DNA of 64,000 nt from positions 1-64,000 of IMG/VR virus record IMGVR_UViG_3300044655_001596; one strand, 5' to 3'. The number at the start of each line of letters is the position of its first letter. Position 1 is the stretch's first letter. The notes under the pieces were generated by a model that saw only the letters and a list, made by a program, of their open reading frames with translations, was not told the DNA's origin and made no database searches. Of this stretch, positions 28,127 through 35,132 are shown one piece after another. The stretch is from a virus. Made by a program: the position numbers and the translations under genes.

Positions 28127-28581
28127 AAAAAATCTACTACGAAAAACGTGGTCGCAGGTACGTGCCTGTCGCTGAAAATGACTATGACATGTTTGATGCC
28201 ATGCCAAAAGGCGCACATCTTGTGATGTGCTATCCTGGTGGACAAAGCAAACGCTACAACATCAACCCTAACTATGCGGCCTTGATTGCCGCTGGGCGTG
28301 TTGCTGAGGATGCAATGAGCGAAGCCATTCGCAAGGCCAGCGAACTGCGACCACAAAAAACCACTATTACCCCAGGACAAAAGCAAGCCTGGGAAAAGTT
28401 GGCCAAAGAGTTTGGTAGTGAATTAGCCACATTGCAAATCAGTAGTGCCAGAGATATTGCCGAAGCAGGATTGAAAGCATTGCAAGCAGAAGCAGATAAA
28501 TTAATGCAACACGAAAGTGTAAAAAGTGCATACGAACAATTCCTGTTGGTATGCGAATTAACCAAGAAGGAGAATGCATAA
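28123..28581 (+). CDS. hypothetical protein
   Basis: 152 aa, GTG start. Confidence 0.7.
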   Translation: MKKIYYEKRGRRYVPVAENDYDMFDAMPKGAHLVMCYPGGQSKRYNINPNYAALIAAGRVAEDAMSEAIRKASELRPQKTTITPGQKQAWEKLAKEFGSELATLQISSARDIAEAGLKALQAEADKLMQHESVKSAYEQFLLVCELTKKENA

Positions 28582-29276
28582 TGTATGCAACAACAGTTGA
28601 CAGTTATCGAGACGCCGCAGGCGTAAACCAGGCCATGGGCCGAGTATATGGCCATATGGCGCTGGCTGTGCTAACCAGCATGCTTGTGAGCATGTTTGTG
28701 GGCATGAACCCAGAACTGGTTGAGTTTTTCTTTACCGGCATCATGAAGTGGGTAGTGATCTTTGCACCACTTGCGGCAGTGTTTGTGGTTGCACCTGTAC
28801 TGGCCAGTAACCCAACACCTCCGGTGGCCATGGCGGCTCTACACGGCTTTGCGGCCTTGATGGGTCTGAGCTTTGCAATGATCTTTGTGATCTACACCAT
28901 GGGATCGATCTTTACTGCCTTCATGGGTGCGGCTGTGCTTTTTGGCACCATGAGTGGGTATGGTTATTTTACCAAACAAAGTCTTGATTCAGTAGGCAAG
29001 TATGCCTTTGTCGCTTTGATCGCCATCTGCATTGCCAGTATAGTTAATATCTTTATTGGCAGCACCGTGATGCAGATGGTGATCTCCGCAATTGCAATCT
29101 TGGTGTTTTTGGCACTCACGGCCTACGACACTCAAACCATTCGTGAAAGAGTATCACGTGAAGATAGCACCTATGGTGATGAAGTGTCTGGAGCACTGAG
29201 TTTGTACCTGGACTTTATCAATATCTTTATTCACTTGCTCCAGTTGTTTGGAATTATGAACAACAAAGACGACTAA
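28581..29276 (+). CDS. Bax inhibitor-1/YccA family membrane protein
   Basis: Seven hydrophobic segments, AYDTQ, GALSLYLDFINIF; AGGAG RBS. Confidence 0.9.
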   Translation: MYATTVDSYRDAAGVNQAMGRVYGHMALAVLTSMLVSMFVGMNPELVEFFFTGIMKWVVIFAPLAAVFVVAPVLASNPTPPVAMAALHGFAALMGLSFAMIFVIYTMGSIFTAFMGAAVLFGTMSGYGYFTKQSLDSVGKYAFVALIAICIASIVNIFIGSTVMQMVISAIAILVFLALTAYDTQTIRERVSREDSTYGDEVSGALSLYLDFINIFIHLLQLFGIMNNKDD

Positions 29277-29387: not shown

Positions 29388-30356
29388 ATGGCCACAATTG
29401 ACGAACAAAACAAATTGATTGAAGTACTCAAGTTTACACCACGCACCTACAAGATTCAATTGTGGGGCTATGGTGGTGAGTACATCATGGGCACAGTGGA
29501 TCGCAAGATCTATGATTACTTTCGCTATCGTAGACTGAGCCTAAGTGACTTTGCTTGGGACTCGGACTATGCAGAGGAAAACAACATTCCCGAAGAAATG
29601 TGGCCGTTCTCACCAGGCAGTTACTATGACTGTGATGACATTTGCCATGAACACGGGGTTGACCGCAATGCTGGCACAATTCAAATCATGGACGAACAAG
29701 ATCAAATTGTTTACGAAAAGAGACTGGAAGACATCTCAGGCATGGGTGCAGATGGTGATCCACCTGAACCCGAATGGGGCGGTGGCGAGGAATACTGGAT
29801 TGGTATGAAGCCGGTGGGCACAGTAGTGTTCTTTGGCATCAGCAACGAGAAGGGCACTTTCTTTGAAGGTGAACTTCCACTAACCCAACCATTTGACGTT
29901 GCCAAACTTGAAATGGGCTATGACGAGATTGACGGCAACGACATTATCACCAACGTCAAATATGATGGCGAACAGATCGACAACTGGGGAGGTGACACCA
30001 ACGGCAAAAGTAGTGATTTTGGTTTCTACCTGGTTAAGGATTCCAACACCTGGCAAAAATATTGCACCATGGATGATATTGAATATCCAATGACTGAATG
30101 GTTTCCCAAGAAGATCAAGCCTGTGCGTGAAGGCGTGTACATGATCAGAGTACCAGGCAAAAGTGGTTATACACATCATGCCAAGTGGACCGGTACACGT
30201 TGGATTAGTTCCTGGCAAGAGGACGTTAGCGACACTGAAGAACTCAAAATCAAAGAATGGCAAGGCATCTCTTTTGATCCTGAAGAACTAGAAATTCGAG
30301 AAGACTTTGATAAACTTGTTGTAGAATTTGACGAACTGTCGAAAGAGGAGAACTAA
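29388..30356 (+). CDS. acidic hypothetical protein
   Basis: 322 aa; W..PVREGVY C-terminal module. Confidence 0.7.
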   Translation: MATIDEQNKLIEVLKFTPRTYKIQLWGYGGEYIMGTVDRKIYDYFRYRRLSLSDFAWDSDYAEENNIPEEMWPFSPGSYYDCDDICHEHGVDRNAGTIQIMDEQDQIVYEKRLEDISGMGADGDPPEPEWGGGEEYWIGMKPVGTVVFFGISNEKGTFFEGELPLTQPFDVAKLEMGYDEIDGNDIITNVKYDGEQIDNWGGDTNGKSSDFGFYLVKDSNTWQKYCTMDDIEYPMTEWFPKKIKPVREGVYMIRVPGKSGYTHHAKWTGTRWISSWQEDVSDTEELKIKEWQGISFDPEELEIREDFDKLVVEFDELSKEEN

Positions 30357-30357
30357 T

Positions 30358-30741
30358 ATGGCAACATGGGTATTAACAACTGCTGAAAAGAAAAACGTTG
30401 AAGAAATTGAATTTTGGTACAAAGACGGAAAAATAATCAAACGCACTACTGGTTTTCGTTGGGGCACAGTCTATTGCGAAAGTGATGAACGGCCTGATAT
30501 TGATTTAGAGAATCCGGATGGCCTTGAAGTATTTGCTACTGATTATGACTTCGAACTTGACAACTTGGATGATGGACATTACTGTGATGTTGAATATCCG
30601 GACGACATGAGCGAAGAAGAACAAGAGCGTATGGACGAACTCTGGGATGAAGATTCTTATAGTGCCTGGGAAGAAGAAGGTTGGTCAAACGACGACACAG
30701 AAACTTGGTTCCATGGTCCACTAGATTTAGAACAACAATAA
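30358..30741 (+). CDS. very acidic hypothetical protein
   Basis: GAGGAG RBS; D/E/W rich. Confidence 0.7.
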   Translation: MATWVLTTAEKKNVEEIEFWYKDGKIIKRTTGFRWGTVYCESDERPDIDLENPDGLEVFATDYDFELDNLDDGHYCDVEYPDDMSEEEQERMDELWDEDSYSAWEEEGWSNDDTETWFHGPLDLEQQ

Positions 30742-30742
30742 G

Positions 30743-30772
30743 TTGACATCGCCACCACTCCTTGTGTATAAT
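30743..30772 (+). promoter_or_regulatory. sigma70 promoter
   Basis: TTGACA-N18-TATAAT. Confidence 0.65.
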
Positions 30773-30773
30773 G

Positions 30774-30960
30774 CAAGTGTGCATGGGCAAGGAGATAGGT
30801 GGCGATCTAATGGCATGAGCGGGGTGATTGAACGCCCGGGCCCGACATAGCCGTGGCAGGTAGATGTAATGCCCACGAGGTTGAGACACTGTCCAAGACC
30901 CGGCAACGGGTCAAAACCGGCTGGTACCCGGTGTATGCTTCAGTTGGAATTCACAGTGAA
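30774..30960 (+). ncRNA. candidate structured ncRNA or long 5' leader
   Basis: GC-rich, no convincing ORF, multiple nested stems including GACCCG-GCAA-CGGGTC. Confidence 0.5.
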
Positions 30961-30971
30961 AGGAACGTTAA

Positions 30972-31289
30972 ATGTCTGTTAAAATAGAAGCCTCTGATTC
31001 CATGCTTCCATCCCTTGACTCTCTTAAAACAACGGCTTTGCCCATGCACAAATTATATTTCGAACTGAGTGATATTGACACATGGTATGCCATCATGCGT
31101 GAAGCACGAGCACAGTTCGGCAAAAACTGGCGTAGTCAGGCACATGTCAAACGACGACTAGAACACGCCAGTCTCTGGCGAGTGGATGGTCACGCAGAAC
31201 GTGTGTGGTTTGAAGTGCCAGATCCCAAGTTCGGTACCTGGATAGCCATTAAACATGCTGTTAGACAGGTGCAACCACCCGGTAAATAA
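30972..31289 (+). CDS. hypothetical protein
   Basis: AAGGA RBS. Confidence 0.7.
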   Translation: MSVKIEASDSMLPSLDSLKTTALPMHKLYFELSDIDTWYAIMREARAQFGKNWRSQAHVKRRLEHASLWRVDGHAERVWFEVPDPKFGTWIAIKHAVRQVQPPGK

Positions 31290-31295
31290 TACTCT

Positions 31296-32798
31296 ATGAT
31301 ATTTGGATTTGCTATTCTCGCCACCGCATTGTTGTTAAGCATGGTGGCTGCTTATTACTCAGTAGCCGGATTGGTGGCCATATTTTCTGCGGCGACCATT
31401 CCGGTTATCATCATGGGTGGCAGCCTGGAACTGGGCAAGATTGCAGCCACAGTGTGGTTGCACAACAATTGGCGACGTGCTGGTTGGGCATTCAAGTTTT
31501 ATCTTGTGCCTGCTGTGGCGTTTCTCATGATCTTGACTAGTATGGGTATTTTTGGATATCTATCAAAAGCACACAGTGATCAAAGTTTAGTGTCGGGCGA
31601 TGTACAAAGTAAAATTGCCATCTATGACGAAAAGATCAAGACAGCAAAGGACAATATAGATGCGAACCGGAAGGCGCTTAGACAGATGGATGAAGCTGTG
31701 GACCAAGTTATGGGTCGAAGCAGTGATGAAAAAGGTGCCGACAAAGCTGTTGCAATCCGACGAGCACAGCAAAAAGAACGTGCAAGACTTCAATCCGAGA
31801 TCGCGGCCGAACAGAAAACAATTGCCGCCGTTAGCGAAGAACGTGCGCCAATCGCTGCCGAGGTTCGTAAGGTTGAAGCAGAAGTTGGACCGATAAAATA
31901 CATTGCGGCCTTGCTGTACGGAGACAACCCTGACAACAATCTGCTAGAACGTGCGGTGCGTTGGATGATCATAATGATTGTGCTGGTGTTTGATCCACTA
32001 GCACTAACCTTAATTCTAGCCGCCAACAAACAGTTTGAATGGGCACGACAAGGCACCGGAGGTTTTGTACACGACGAGCCCAAGTACGAGGCCGACGATG
32101 GTCCTTTAACTGACCAACAAGTTGATCAACTCAACAAATCTGTTGAAGTGCTTAAAACAGACCCGCACCCACCAGGCTGGATGTTTGACAAGTTTCCTTA
32201 TCTACAGGCTGGCGCGGCCATGTTCTTCAAAGACGTCAAACCCATGCCGGCTCAGTCTGACAATGACCAAGCGGCCATGAACATTGTTGCAGAACCTCCT
32301 GGTATAGAAACACGCCCATTTACTCCTGACGAAATAGCGGCGCTGGAGGCGGCGGATCACGAAGATGAAGAGGATGATGCACTCAAAGCTGCCATTAGAC
32401 AATGGAAAGCTGCCAACCCCGACGATACCTTGAAGAACCAACGTTTCAAATTGATGCGGGGAGAAATTGCTGAATTACCTTGGATGGGCTTGTTGGCTGA
32501 CAATGAATCAAGAAAAGAAATAAACAGTGGGTTTGGCACACAGTTTCCACCACATGCCGAACGTGGCGATACCTTTGTAAGAGTTGACCGCCTGCCCACA
32601 GTGGTCTATAAGTACAATGGTAAAGACTGGATAGAAGTTGACAAAAATCTAACAGACAGTTATACTTACGATATTGCTTATATTGATCACTTGATAGAGC
32701 GCATTGCATCTGGCGAATATGATGCTGAACTATTGAGTGAAATCGAGCGTGAGCAAGTGTCCCAACGTTTACAATCAAATACAAATACAAACACATGA
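31296..32798 (+). CDS. multi-pass membrane protein with coiled coil
   Basis: N-terminal TMs, TSMGIFGYLSKAH, EAEVGPIKYIA, VFDPLA. Confidence 0.75.
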   Translation: MIFGFAILATALLLSMVAAYYSVAGLVAIFSAATIPVIIMGGSLELGKIAATVWLHNNWRRAGWAFKFYLVPAVAFLMILTSMGIFGYLSKAHSDQSLVSGDVQSKIAIYDEKIKTAKDNIDANRKALRQMDEAVDQVMGRSSDEKGADKAVAIRRAQQKERARLQSEIAAEQKTIAAVSEERAPIAAEVRKVEAEVGPIKYIAALLYGDNPDNNLLERAVRWMIIMIVLVFDPLALTLILAANKQFEWARQGTGGFVHDEPKYEADDGPLTDQQVDQLNKSVEVLKTDPHPPGWMFDKFPYLQAGAAMFFKDVKPMPAQSDNDQAAMNIVAEPPGIETRPFTPDEIAALEAADHEDEEDDALKAAIRQWKAANPDDTLKNQRFKLMRGEIAELPWMGLLADNESRKEINSGFGTQFPPHAERGDTFVRVDRLPTVVYKYNGKDWIEVDKNLTDSYTYDIAYIDHLIERIASGEYDAELLSEIEREQVSQRLQSNTNTNT

Positions 32799-34012
32799 AA
32801 TCAAATGATCAAATCACATCCTGCAGTTTTTGTGGAAAACACAAAGATGCAGTGGCTAAACTTATTGTAGGTGAAGGTGTTGCCATATGCAATGAGTGTG
32901 TGGAACTATGTGAAACTTTGCTGAAAGATGAAAATTTTGCCGGCACAGTCAGCCCTCCTGTTGTGATGGACCCTGAACACATAAAAAATCATCTAGATCA
33001 GTATGTGATTGGCCAGGATCGTGCCAAACAGGTACTGAGCGTGGCAGTGGTAAATCATTACAAACGCATTAGTAATCCGGGAACTGATACTGAGATTGAA
33101 AAGTGTAACATTCTCATGCTTGGCCCAACGGGGTCGGGCAAAACATTGTTGGCACGTAGTGTAGCACGTTACTTGGATGTACCGTTCGTGATTGCCGATG
33201 CCACAAGTCTTACTGAAGCAGGTTATGTAGGCGACGACGTTGAGAGCTTGATCTCTAGATTGTTTGCCGCATCGGGCGGTGACATCGCCAAAACACAGCG
33301 CGGCATTGTGTTCATTGACGAAATTGACAAAATCAGTCGCCGCAGTGAAAGTGCTTCAATCACACGAGATGTGTCAGGAGAAGGTGTACAACAGGCCTTG
33401 CTTAAACTGGTAGAAGGCACCAAGTGCAGAGTCACTCCCACAGGAAATCGCAAGCATCCTTCAGGTGACATGATTGAGATTGATACCACTAACATCTTGT
33501 TTATTGCTGGTGGTGCGTTCGTGGGTCTTGATGCAGTGGTAAAAAATCGTGTGCGTGGAACTTCGATTGGTTTCAGTGCAAAAGTAAAAGACGACACAGA
33601 AACACACCTAGACCAAGTCACACCAGAAGACTTGATCAAGTTTGGTATGATTCCAGAGTTTGTGGGTCGTTTCCCTAGCTGGGTAGCACTCAACGAACTC
33701 AACAAAGAAGATTTGATCCGTATCTTGCTGGATGTCAAACACAGTTACATTGCACAATACTCTTGGTTGTTTGAACAAGACAAAGTAGAACTAGAATTCA
33801 GTGCAGAAGCCTTGGAAATGATTGCAGATCGCACTATTCTAAACAAAACTGGTGCTAGGGGTTTGCACTCAGAGCTAGAACGTGTGTTACTCCCCCATAT
33901 GTTTTATTTGGCCCGTTATCGTAGGGAAGGAGTAAACCGCGTGTTTATTGATGCAGATCAGGTAAATACCCCTACAGAACTAAAGGAAGCAAATGGAAAA
34001 GCTAAGGGGTAG
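32795..34012 (+). CDS. clpX: ATP-dependent Clp protease ATP-binding subunit ClpX
   Basis: CSFC..CNEC Zn finger, [29 protein letters not shown] loop, TGARGL. Confidence 0.96.
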
Positions 34013-34217
34013 ATCAGTACTGGTCACAGATGGTAACGTAGACAAAGCTCTACGTAAATTCAAAAAGAAAATTCAAACATCGGGCATCTTAGATGATGTT
34101 CGAGCCAAAGAGTTTTACGAAAAACCCACTACAGAACGCAAACGCAAAAAGTCAGCGGCGCAAAATCGTTGGCGCAAAAAACTAGCCGAACAGGCTTTGC
34201 CCAAAAAACTTTATTGA
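33993..34217 (+). CDS. rpsU: 30S ribosomal protein bS21
   Basis: [25 protein letters not shown]. Confidence 0.9.
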
Positions 34218-34248
34218 TAATGGGTTTTCGTGTATAATAAATAACTGT

Positions 34249-34300
34249 GTAGTGCCCATAGTGGGGCTACATCTAAGTCATCTTGCTTATAAAGGAGAAA
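34249..34300 (+). promoter_or_regulatory. structured hsp20 leader with ROSE-like thermometer hairpin
   Basis: 5' hairpin, then TCTTGCT (34281) pairing with AGGAGA (34293). Confidence 0.5.
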
Positions 34301-34304
34301 ACAA

Positions 34305-34763
34305 ATGACAAAAACTCTCACCCTTCGTAGTTTCGACATTCCCGCACTCACCAAATTTGGTATCGGTTTCGATAACATGTTTGATGAACTCATGCGTGTG
34401 AGTACTCAACAATCCTCAACCAACTACCCGCCCTACGATATTGTACAAATCAATGACGACGAGTACATGATCAGTGTGGCTGTGGCCGGTTTTGGGCATG
34501 ACAACCTTACTGTGACCAAGGACAAAAACTTCTTGATTATTGAAGGCAAGCACAGTCGTGAAACTGTGGAGAATGACGATGCCACTGCAAAATATTTGCA
34601 CAAAGGTATTAGTGAAAGAAGTTTCCGCAGAGAATTCCAACTTGCGGATCATGTGGAAATTAGTAATGCTCACCTTGAACTAGGTATTCTCAGCGTTCAC
34701 TTGCGACGTGAAGTGCCCGAAGAAGCCAAGCCAAAGACTATTGCTATCACATACACTTCCTAA
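34305..34763 (+). CDS. small heat shock protein Hsp20/IbpA
   Basis: GFD..F, NYPPYDI, AVAGF, YLHKGIS.RSF.R.F.L. Confidence 0.95.
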   Translation: MTKTLTLRSFDIPALTKFGIGFDNMFDELMRVSTQQSSTNYPPYDIVQINDDEYMISVAVAGFGHDNLTVTKDKNFLIIEGKHSRETVENDDATAKYLHKGISERSFRREFQLADHVEISNAHLELGILSVHLRREVPEEAKPKTIAITYTS

Positions 34764-34820
34764 TATAATAGTGTAAATACAGTAGGGACGCGGTGTCCCT
34801 ACTGCTAACAAGGAAACAAA

Positions 34821-35132
34821 ATGGCACAAAGCGAAACTAAAACTAGAATCAAACCCTTAGAATCTGTGCAAGAGCCGCCCTTGTACCGTGTGGTCTATCT
34901 CAATGACAATCAAACCACGTATGAATTTGTGGTAGAGACTTTGATTGAATACTTTGACTACACCGCAGAAACCGCAGAACAAATCACAATAGACATCCAT
35001 GATGCGGGATCAGCTGTGGTAGCAGTGCTGCCATACGAGATTGCTGAACAAAAAGGTGTGGAAGTGACCATGCTGGCACGAGCACAAAGTTATCCACTGC
35101 AAATCAAACTAGAACCAGAACCTGTTGGTTAA
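34821..35132 (+). CDS. clpS: N-end rule adaptor ClpS
   Basis: PPLYRVVYLNDNQT, IH..GSA, YEIAEQK, YPL. Confidence 0.93.
   Translation: MAQSETKTRIKPLESVQEPPLYRVVYLNDNQTTYEFVVETLIEYFDYTAETAEQITIDIHDAGSAVVAVLPYEIAEQKGVEVTMLARAQSYPLQIKLEPEPVG

Follow-up and report, generated by a model that had tools for sequence, protein, structure and literature searches.

A pseudoknotted RNA element of about 271 nt, filed here as a structured translational leader and uncatalogued in Rfam 15, overlaps the start of a phage gene, termed P105; the RNA closes around the start of this first gene of an operon and most likely controls its translation. The element was located in an IMG/VR record (77 kb in all; CheckV completeness 22%), of which the first 64,000 nucleotides, hereafter the window, were analyzed; the parts of the element and the P105 gene lie on the plus strand. 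A first-pass annotation, made by eye, had placed a structured RNA at 30774-30960. A real structured RNA does lie there, but the element's ends fold differently: its 5' end pairs with codons 22-26 of P105, and the element is therefore taken to span 30779-31049, reaching about 90 nt past the 3' coordinate first given.

The RNA begins in a 230-bp gap (30742-30971) between an ORF at 30328-30741 and the P105 ORF, which encodes 105 amino acids (30972-31289). A sigma70-type promoter opens this gap (30743-30772), and its -35 hexamer TTGACA (30743-48), 18-bp spacer and -10 hexamer TATAAT (30767-72) match the consensus at 12 of 12 positions, in agreement with the earlier proposal that the RNA has its own promoter. 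From the position of this promoter, transcription is predicted to start near G30779. In the homologues inspected, a TTGACA/TATAAT-like pair lies at an equal distance from a conserved GCAUG motif. Complementarity between CGCCACC of the promoter spacer and GGUGGCG was also considered as a possible pairing and rejected, as it occurs in the close clade only and is absent in far clades. The region had been described as GC-rich; it is slightly richer than its flanks, though only mildly so (G+C of 0.51-0.52 vs. 0.38-0.50). No terminator occurs between the RNA and the P105 gene, and none follows the closing helix, P0.

P0 encloses two domains and three further helices, two of which have both strands within the first 50 coding bases, as well as the start codon and the ribosome-binding site. 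Its 5' strand, GUGCAUGGGCAAGG (30779-30792), pairs with CUUUGCCCAUGCAC (31036-31049), i.e., codons 22-26 (Ala-Leu-Pro-Met-His), as supported by covariation and by the minimum-energy fold. The 5' strand overlaps the start of a conserved purine-rich tract (30788-30796) that resembles a Shine-Dalgarno (SD) sequence. Domain I, a long irregular hairpin (30799-30876), and domain II, a three-way junction (30887-30958), are both supported by covariation and are separated by a conserved linker whose GAGA (30883-30886) forms the 5' strand of helix PL. The SD sequence AAAGGA (30959-30964) and the ATG of the 105-aa gene (30972-30974), both assigned from sequence, are unpaired. Within the coding region, covariation supports helix C1 (GUUAA/UUGAC; 30978-82/31015-19), helix C2 (AAGC/GCUU; 30988-91/31004-07) and the 3' strand of PL, UCUC (31020-31023), which spans the Ser17 codon plus the first position of codon 18.

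When folded alone, the stretch 30774-30975 is no more stable than its shuffles (z of -0.37 on the plus strand and 0.05 on the minus strand). Single-sequence folding proves nothing in this instance; therefore, the case rests on homologues. These were sought in IMG/VR with the P105 protein and with two P105 alignments, which returned 181, 207 and 124 encoding stretches, respectively. Some of the P105-encoding contigs are 343-364 kb long, including one with terminal repeats that is rated 100% complete, and the carriers are uncultured jumbo phages of lakes. The GenBank phage collection gave no DNA match and no protein match. A covariance model built from 18 close sequences matched exactly once in each of 58 distinct loci and likewise in 79 loci of a further set of 80; every match ends at the P105 ATG, and the single locus without a match has no upstream DNA. 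Five genome records, including three complete genomes of 343-364 kb, carry one copy each. The RNA was found ahead of P105 only, never ahead of several genes of one pathway.

The order RNA-P105-TM500-clpX and its tight spacing are kept in all of the approximately 140 related loci, whereas the genes upstream (a 152-aa ORF, a Bax-inhibitor-1 homologue, a 322-aa ORF and an acidic 127-aa ORF) are shuffled. Conservation of the leader equals that of the protein-coding sequence, with identities of 0.91 vs. 0.88, respectively, among close relatives and of 0.72 vs. 0.67 among far relatives. In a distant clade, with proteins approximately 40-50% identical, the model score is weak or absent and the same architecture is still visible. 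Farther P105 homologues lack both the RNA and the first ~20 codons, lying directly behind a promoter or another gene. Among 185,579 species genomes, the only matches were two contigs of 39 and 70 kb (L183 and L184) in the MAG Haliscomenobacter sp. EUL_031 (Bacteroidota), and these carry two different versions of the RNA-P105 module within the one MAG. They are probably phage contigs that were binned with it; the TTGACA/TATAAT promoters and the use of SD sequences suit a proteobacterial-type host better than one from the Bacteroidota.

For covariation analysis, 90 distinct sequences from IMG/VR jumbo-phage contigs were aligned by fitting to the covariance model. In this alignment, 93.3% of the cells in the proposed helices are paired; sliding the 3' partners lowers this share to 27-45%. 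Compensatory changes occur at 36 of the 44 pairs. Because this alignment had been fitted to the model, two alignments not so fitted were checked. A MAFFT alignment of the 18 close sequences gave 97% paired vs. 23-40% slid, with 10 compensatory pairs, and MAFFT combined with RNAalifold on 30 diverse sequences recovered the helices Sx, S3 and S4. An all-against-all scan of columns proved too noisy because the sequences are related, and only stacked runs of pairs were used.

Domain I consists of four helices, each with compensatory changes: Sx (GUGGC/GC(C)CAC; 30799-803/30871-876, with C30872 bulged; 99% paired), S3 (AUCUA/UAGAU; 30805-09/30861-65; 94%), S4 (AUGGCAUG/CAUAGCCGU; 30810-17/30846-54; 89-91%) and S5' (CGGG/CCCG; 30820-23/30841-44; 94-98%), the last of which is topped by a short, variable apical hairpin (30824-35). 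Covariation in the 90 homologues bears out two of the stems that had been drawn by eye in this region, ATCTA/TAGAT (30805-09/30861-65) and ATGGCATG/CATAGCCGT (30810-17/30846-54). A third, GGGTG/CGCCC, was partly right, the conserved pairing being instead that of CGGG with CCCG in S5'. The outermost stem, TGGGCA(30784)/TGCCCA(30870), did not survive, as only 61.8% of its cells are paired; its 3' arm pairs instead with GUGGC at 30799-30803 and its 5' arm with 31036-31049. With Sx in its place, far homologues scored higher against the model (e.g., 96.8 instead of 83.6 bits). The alternative closing stem, AAGTGTGCA/TGTATGCTT, was likewise superseded.

Domain II is built from P1 (10 bp; 30887-96/30944-47 + 30953-58; 91-97% paired), P2 with a GCAA loop of the GNRA type (30897-30912; 99.4% paired, with compensatory changes in six of six pairs) and P3 with the seven-base loop CUGGUAC (30916-32; 93-99% paired). 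An AAA junction lies between P2 and P3, and a second junction, J3/1 (30933-43), follows P3. All three helices had been anticipated in the first-pass annotation, as CACTGTCCAA/TTGG..ACAGTG (30887-96/30944-47 + 30953-58), GACCCG-GCAA-CGGGTC (30897-30912) and ACCGG/CCGGT (30916-20/30928-32), and all three covary among the 90 homologues. The domains are joined by a pseudoknot between the invariant GGCA bulge of domain I (30855-58) and UGCU of J3/1 (30936-39). This pairing is complete in 86 of the 90 sequences, with GACA/UGUC, GGCU/AGCC and AGCA/UGCU as compensatory variants, the first two being independent; the pseudoknot is regarded as supported, although less secure than the helices. RNAalifold also predicts that the 5' GCAUG motif pairs with UAUGC of J3/1. 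This candidate was rejected: the partner with which GCAUG covaries is the coding sequence, that of UGCY in J3/1 is the GGCA bulge, and locus L174 breaks the GCAUG/UAUGC pairing and keeps that of GGCA with UGCY.

Several unpaired segments are invariant or nearly so, namely AAUGG, CCGUGGCA, the AGG..UG.GAC linker, CAAAAC and GUAUGC. Domain I further contains an invariant CCCGGGCCCG at 30835-30844, which across clades is self-complementary in the style of CCYRGG or ACCGGU; this site may be a second intermolecular contact or a mere by-product of the CGGG/CCCG helix.

The helices that involve coding sequence were scored separately. For P0, 14 pairs (a 12-bp core and two outer pairs), anchored on the invariant GCAU and AUGC, are 91% paired vs. 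30-43% when slid, and six pairs are compensatory on the alignment made by MAFFT only. Many pair types occur opposite the variable codon 24, which changes in step with the 5' strand. PL is 100% paired in 88 sequences, and its middle pair shifts from A-U (54) to C-G (30) via the synonymous third base of the Ser17 codon. C1 and C2, within the first 36 coding bases, are likewise maintained: C1 is 99.5% paired with three compensatory pairs, and all four inner pairs of C2 are compensatory. Taken together, P0, PL, C1 and C2 are 94% paired vs. 31-42% slid in a MAFFT-only alignment of 88 full-length sequences that was not structure-fitted, and 16 of their 28 pairs are compensatory. The full 275 nt folds with a z of -2.14, and P0 is recovered in both the minimum-energy and the centroid folds. 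The distant clade has Leu (CUG or CUA) in place of Met25 and, in step with this, GCAG or GUAG in place of GCAUG as the 5' motif; the linker and the codons with which it pairs also vary together (GUGG/CCAC, GCGG/CCGC and GAGG/CCUC).

Compensatory changes thus occur in more than 50 pairs overall. These weigh heavily against the notion that the region holds no functional RNA and owes its features to a small ORF, a DNA-level site or chance, a reading that could point to the unremarkable folding of the originally annotated stretch and to the fact that palindromes could in principle be DNA sites. No conserved small ORF was found in the leader, where the longest ORFs run to 9-54 codons and are inconsistent in frame and place even among near-identical relatives. 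As the sequence is, in addition, present in RNA libraries, this explanation is considered extremely improbable.

The earlier description of the RNA as undescribed likewise stands, given the strong covariation and the outcome of a comparison with Rfam 15, whose scope includes tRNA, tmRNA, RNase P, riboswitch classes, self-cleaving ribozymes, OLE, ROOL and GOLLD RNAs and ribosomal-protein leaders. No family matched the 64-kb window at the gathering score; at E ≤ 10, the interval 30600-31100 gave only two chance-level matches (E of 2.5 and 6.9), and for 17 diverse members, the RNA gave no match at E ≤ 5. By-eye likenesses to TPP and T-box motifs received no support from Rfam. ARAGORN found no tRNA or tmRNA, in keeping with the first impression that the RNA resembles neither.

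These results bear on whether the element could be a metabolite- or ion-sensing riboswitch, with domains I and II and the pseudoknot as its aptamer. Several of its features resemble those of large riboswitch aptamers and of the glmS ribozyme: two domains joined by a pseudoknot, a wealth of conserved unpaired nucleotides, a size and complexity within the range of large aptamers, and a position in the 5' UTR immediately ahead of the ribosome-binding site. Conversely, no known class matches, neither an expression platform nor a cleavage site was identified, and the RNA occurs in a single gene context, in which neither the gene nor its neighbours suggest a metabolite. Nor was a conserved alternative pairing found that sequesters the SD sequence, and a riboswitch is therefore rated quite unlikely.

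Relative to the A of the ATG, P1 ends at -14 and C1 starts at +7, with constant spacing in the alignments; the end of P1 falls 1-3 nt ahead of the SD sequence in all clades, and C1, C2, PL and P0 occupy +7 to +78. The fold thus borders on the ribosome-binding site at an unvarying distance and reaches as far as codon 26 of the gene, which supports the earlier suggestion of a leader. About 19 nt containing the SD sequence and the AUG (30959-30977) are unpaired in the consensus fold. The scan of the alignment for stacked runs found no conserved pairing partner for the SD sequence and no other mutually exclusive conserved pairings of the kind expected for a switch; the discarded stem TGGGCA/TGCCCA, which lacks conservation, would be mutually exclusive with P0 and Sx in the clade of the window. 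Given that the SD sequence and AUG are unpaired and that C1 is weak (five pairs, including a G-U), the fold may serve to present the site of initiation instead of blocking it. A separate observation concerns the distant clade (L185-L195, L204, L206, L211 and L246), in which P1 and the start codon are separated by an extra segment of approximately 40 nt. This segment terminates in a self-complementary element of the GGAGAUCUC or AGAGACCUC type that contains the likely SD sequence, and the ribosome-binding site in that clade may thus be paired.

An initiation region held single-stranded between helices would also suit a passive or physical element with no specific effector, either a 5' structure that makes the operon mRNA more stable and keeps the initiation region accessible, or a fold that responds to temperature. 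The latter gains some appeal from the genes that the RNA heads, which include the heat-shock and proteostasis genes clpX, hsp20 and clpS, and from the thermosensor of E. coli rpoH mRNA, which relies on pairing of the initiation region with downstream coding sequence. The element shares with rpoH this type of pairing around the initiation region and the heat-shock or proteostasis character of the mRNA. However, the start region of rpoH is itself paired, and rpoH lacks a long structured leader, whereas the start in the element is unpaired. A paired SD or AUG, normally in a weak helix, is the defining feature of an RNA thermometer, and it is absent at 30959-30977. Moreover, stabilizers and thermometers seldom keep dozens of invariant unpaired nucleotides or a covarying pseudoknot, and here such features are kept across relatives whose proteins are only 50-55% identical; the conserved single-stranded bases argue for specific recognition. 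A purely passive or thermosensitive role is accordingly regarded as distinctly improbable.

Contigs from four metatranscriptome libraries, generated in four studies, cover 30791-31080. As these are short contigs (63-265 nt) and not reads, they demonstrate presence, not ends or level; RNA libraries can, furthermore, contain DNA, and conserved stretches assemble better in mixed populations. Nothing is concluded from the parts that no contig covers (30500-30790 and 31081-31500). A second lead comes from the apical loop of domain I, which contains a perfect palindrome of at least 6 nt in 68 of 90 members, compared with about 16% of shuffles. The palindromes differ by clade (AUCGAU, AGAUCU, GUCGAC, UAGCUA and GAGCUC), which is the pattern expected of a kissing-loop dimer, and they are absent in the window's own RNA and in seven close relatives.

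Such self-complementary loops fit a free, dimerizing RNA at least as well as a leader. According to this alternative, termination or processing immediately downstream of P0 would free the 5' end of the operon transcript as a stable RNA, possibly a kissing-loop homodimer, that would have a function of its own as a scaffold or in trans. The RNA's two ends are joined by P0, as is the case for many stable RNAs, all metatranscriptome contigs are short and fall within the element and its immediate surroundings (30791-31080), and large natural RNAs with conserved intermolecular kissing loops do exist (10.1101/2024.12.08.627333). Against release as a free RNA, the window's RNA and its seven relatives lack the palindrome, no terminator follows P0, the contigs give no ends or levels and could reflect the better assembly of conserved stretches, and coding constraints act on the last third of the element, with the SD sequence and ATG at fixed spacing inside it. 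On balance, a free RNA is judged unlikely.

Among large RNAs, the nearest points of comparison are OLE, ROOL and GOLLD, ornate bacterial and phage RNAs that assemble into homo-oligomers (10.1101/2024.12.08.627333). The element resembles these in its ornate, covariation-supported fold, its occurrence in (lake) phages and its palindromic loops without fixed sequence. It differs in length (~270 nt vs. about 580-800 nt), in having no Rfam match to them, in its overlap with a ribosome-binding site and coding sequence, and in that the window's copy is without a palindrome. An outside prospect is that the element represents a new class of ornate RNA that would begin an mRNA and at the same time assemble with copies of itself into a particle, or that its core is a new aptamer or ribozyme. 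Under the self-associating version, copies would dimerize via their clade-specific palindromic loops, and transcript concentration or another signal would switch translation of the proteostasis operon (clpX, S21, hsp20 and clpS). A survey of structured RNAs in IMG/VR describes candidates of 29-151 nt, including cis-regulatory structures consistently located upstream of genes (PMC10690425); the element is longer than these candidates, and a piece of it may overlap one of them.

The P105 protein itself offers few clues. It has no Pfam or PHROG family and belongs to no known RNA-binding family; it is represented by 131 clusters at 90% identity in a large protein collection, and a profile search of 1.84 billion proteins retrieved just 85 clusters at 50% identity. 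It is a virus-only protein whose Atlas matches are exclusively virus hypothetical clusters. AlphaFold2 models the slightly basic protein as a ferredoxin-like domain with residues 1-20 disordered. A Foldseek search of the PDB with this model gave nothing at E ≤ 0.001, and a wide structural search yielded only generic ferredoxin-like matches (best Z of 6.3). Gene callers start many relatives of P105 at Met25 or at residue 12, and residues 1-24 (30972-31043) seem to exist largely as RNA structure; a D-S/P-L-K/R-x-T motif in the N-terminus is nonetheless kept at the protein level. At the C-terminus (31260-31286), all relatives have a short hydrophobic stretch followed by N/G-K, with an almost invariant last Lys. 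Because clpX lies two genes downstream, this tail might conceivably resemble that of a ClpX adaptor.

P105 heads a co-oriented run (30972-35132) that continues with TM500, a membrane/coiled-coil protein of 500 aa (31296-32798), clpX (32795-34012), rpsU for ribosomal protein S21 (33993-34217, overlapping clpX), hsp20 (34305-34763) and clpS (34821-35132), the last four being assigned by Pfam. A second near-consensus promoter (TTGACA-17-TATACT, matching at 11 of 12 positions; 32638-32666) lies inside the 3' end of the TM500 gene, about 130 bp ahead of clpX; therefore, clpX may also be transcribed independently of the leader. Upstream, a gene for a membrane protein of the Bax-inhibitor-1/YccA family is located at 28551-29276 (Pfam Bax1-I, E of 9e-53), and in some relatives this gene directly precedes the RNA.

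A cis-acting translational operator is tentatively preferred as the explanation for these observations. That the element acts in cis is suggested by its constant abutment to the ribosome-binding site, the inclusion of the first 26 codons in the fold and the lack of a terminator, and further by its occurrence at one gene only and by the joint absence of the RNA and the N-terminal codons from farther homologues. As we envisage it, the element would form the 5' end of a conserved phage operon mRNA transcribed from a consensus host-type promoter, and the 12-14-bp P0 would join the very 5' end to codons 22-26. The folded state, stabilized or remodelled by an effector, would then set how easily the 30S subunit starts on the P105 gene and, via coupling or mRNA stability, would also set the expression of the genes behind it. 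Ranked highest among candidate effectors are a protein, possibly P105 itself acting autogenously, and RNA-RNA dimerization through the apical loop. The main weakness of the operator reading is that the SD sequence and AUG are unpaired and that no conserved alternative conformation was found.

Autogenous operators that embrace an initiation region are well known. For example, the alpha-operon leader of E. coli is bound by S4 (Rfam Alpha_RBS), the rpmI-rplT operator contains a long-range pseudoknot and is bound by L20, and the leader pseudoknot of phage T4 gene 32 serves as an autogenous operator. Like these, the element is a folded leader that contains a pseudoknot and whose long-range pairing takes in the ribosome-binding site and the initial codons, and it is tied to a single gene that is the first of an operon. 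Conversely, it is two to three times larger, has two ornate domains, matches no Rfam model and leaves its SD sequence and AUG unpaired, and P105, with its generic ferredoxin-like fold, is in no RNA-binding family known to date. P105 is a candidate for an RNA-binding autogenous repressor.

New structured RNAs of this size with such covariation support are rare. The element is also widespread, with 90 distinct versions in viral contigs from lake metagenomes and a more diverged form in a further clade, and it is short enough for SHAPE, reporter and cryo-EM work. Coding and non-coding sequences are interleaved in one fold, in which the 5' untranslated end co-evolves with synonymous sites and with one amino-acid position; this makes the element a clean natural example of how RNA structure can constrain a protein's sequence. 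Finally, since the element heads genes for a protease, a chaperone and ribosomal protein S21, it is a plausible control point at which giant phages may retune the proteostasis and translation of their hosts.
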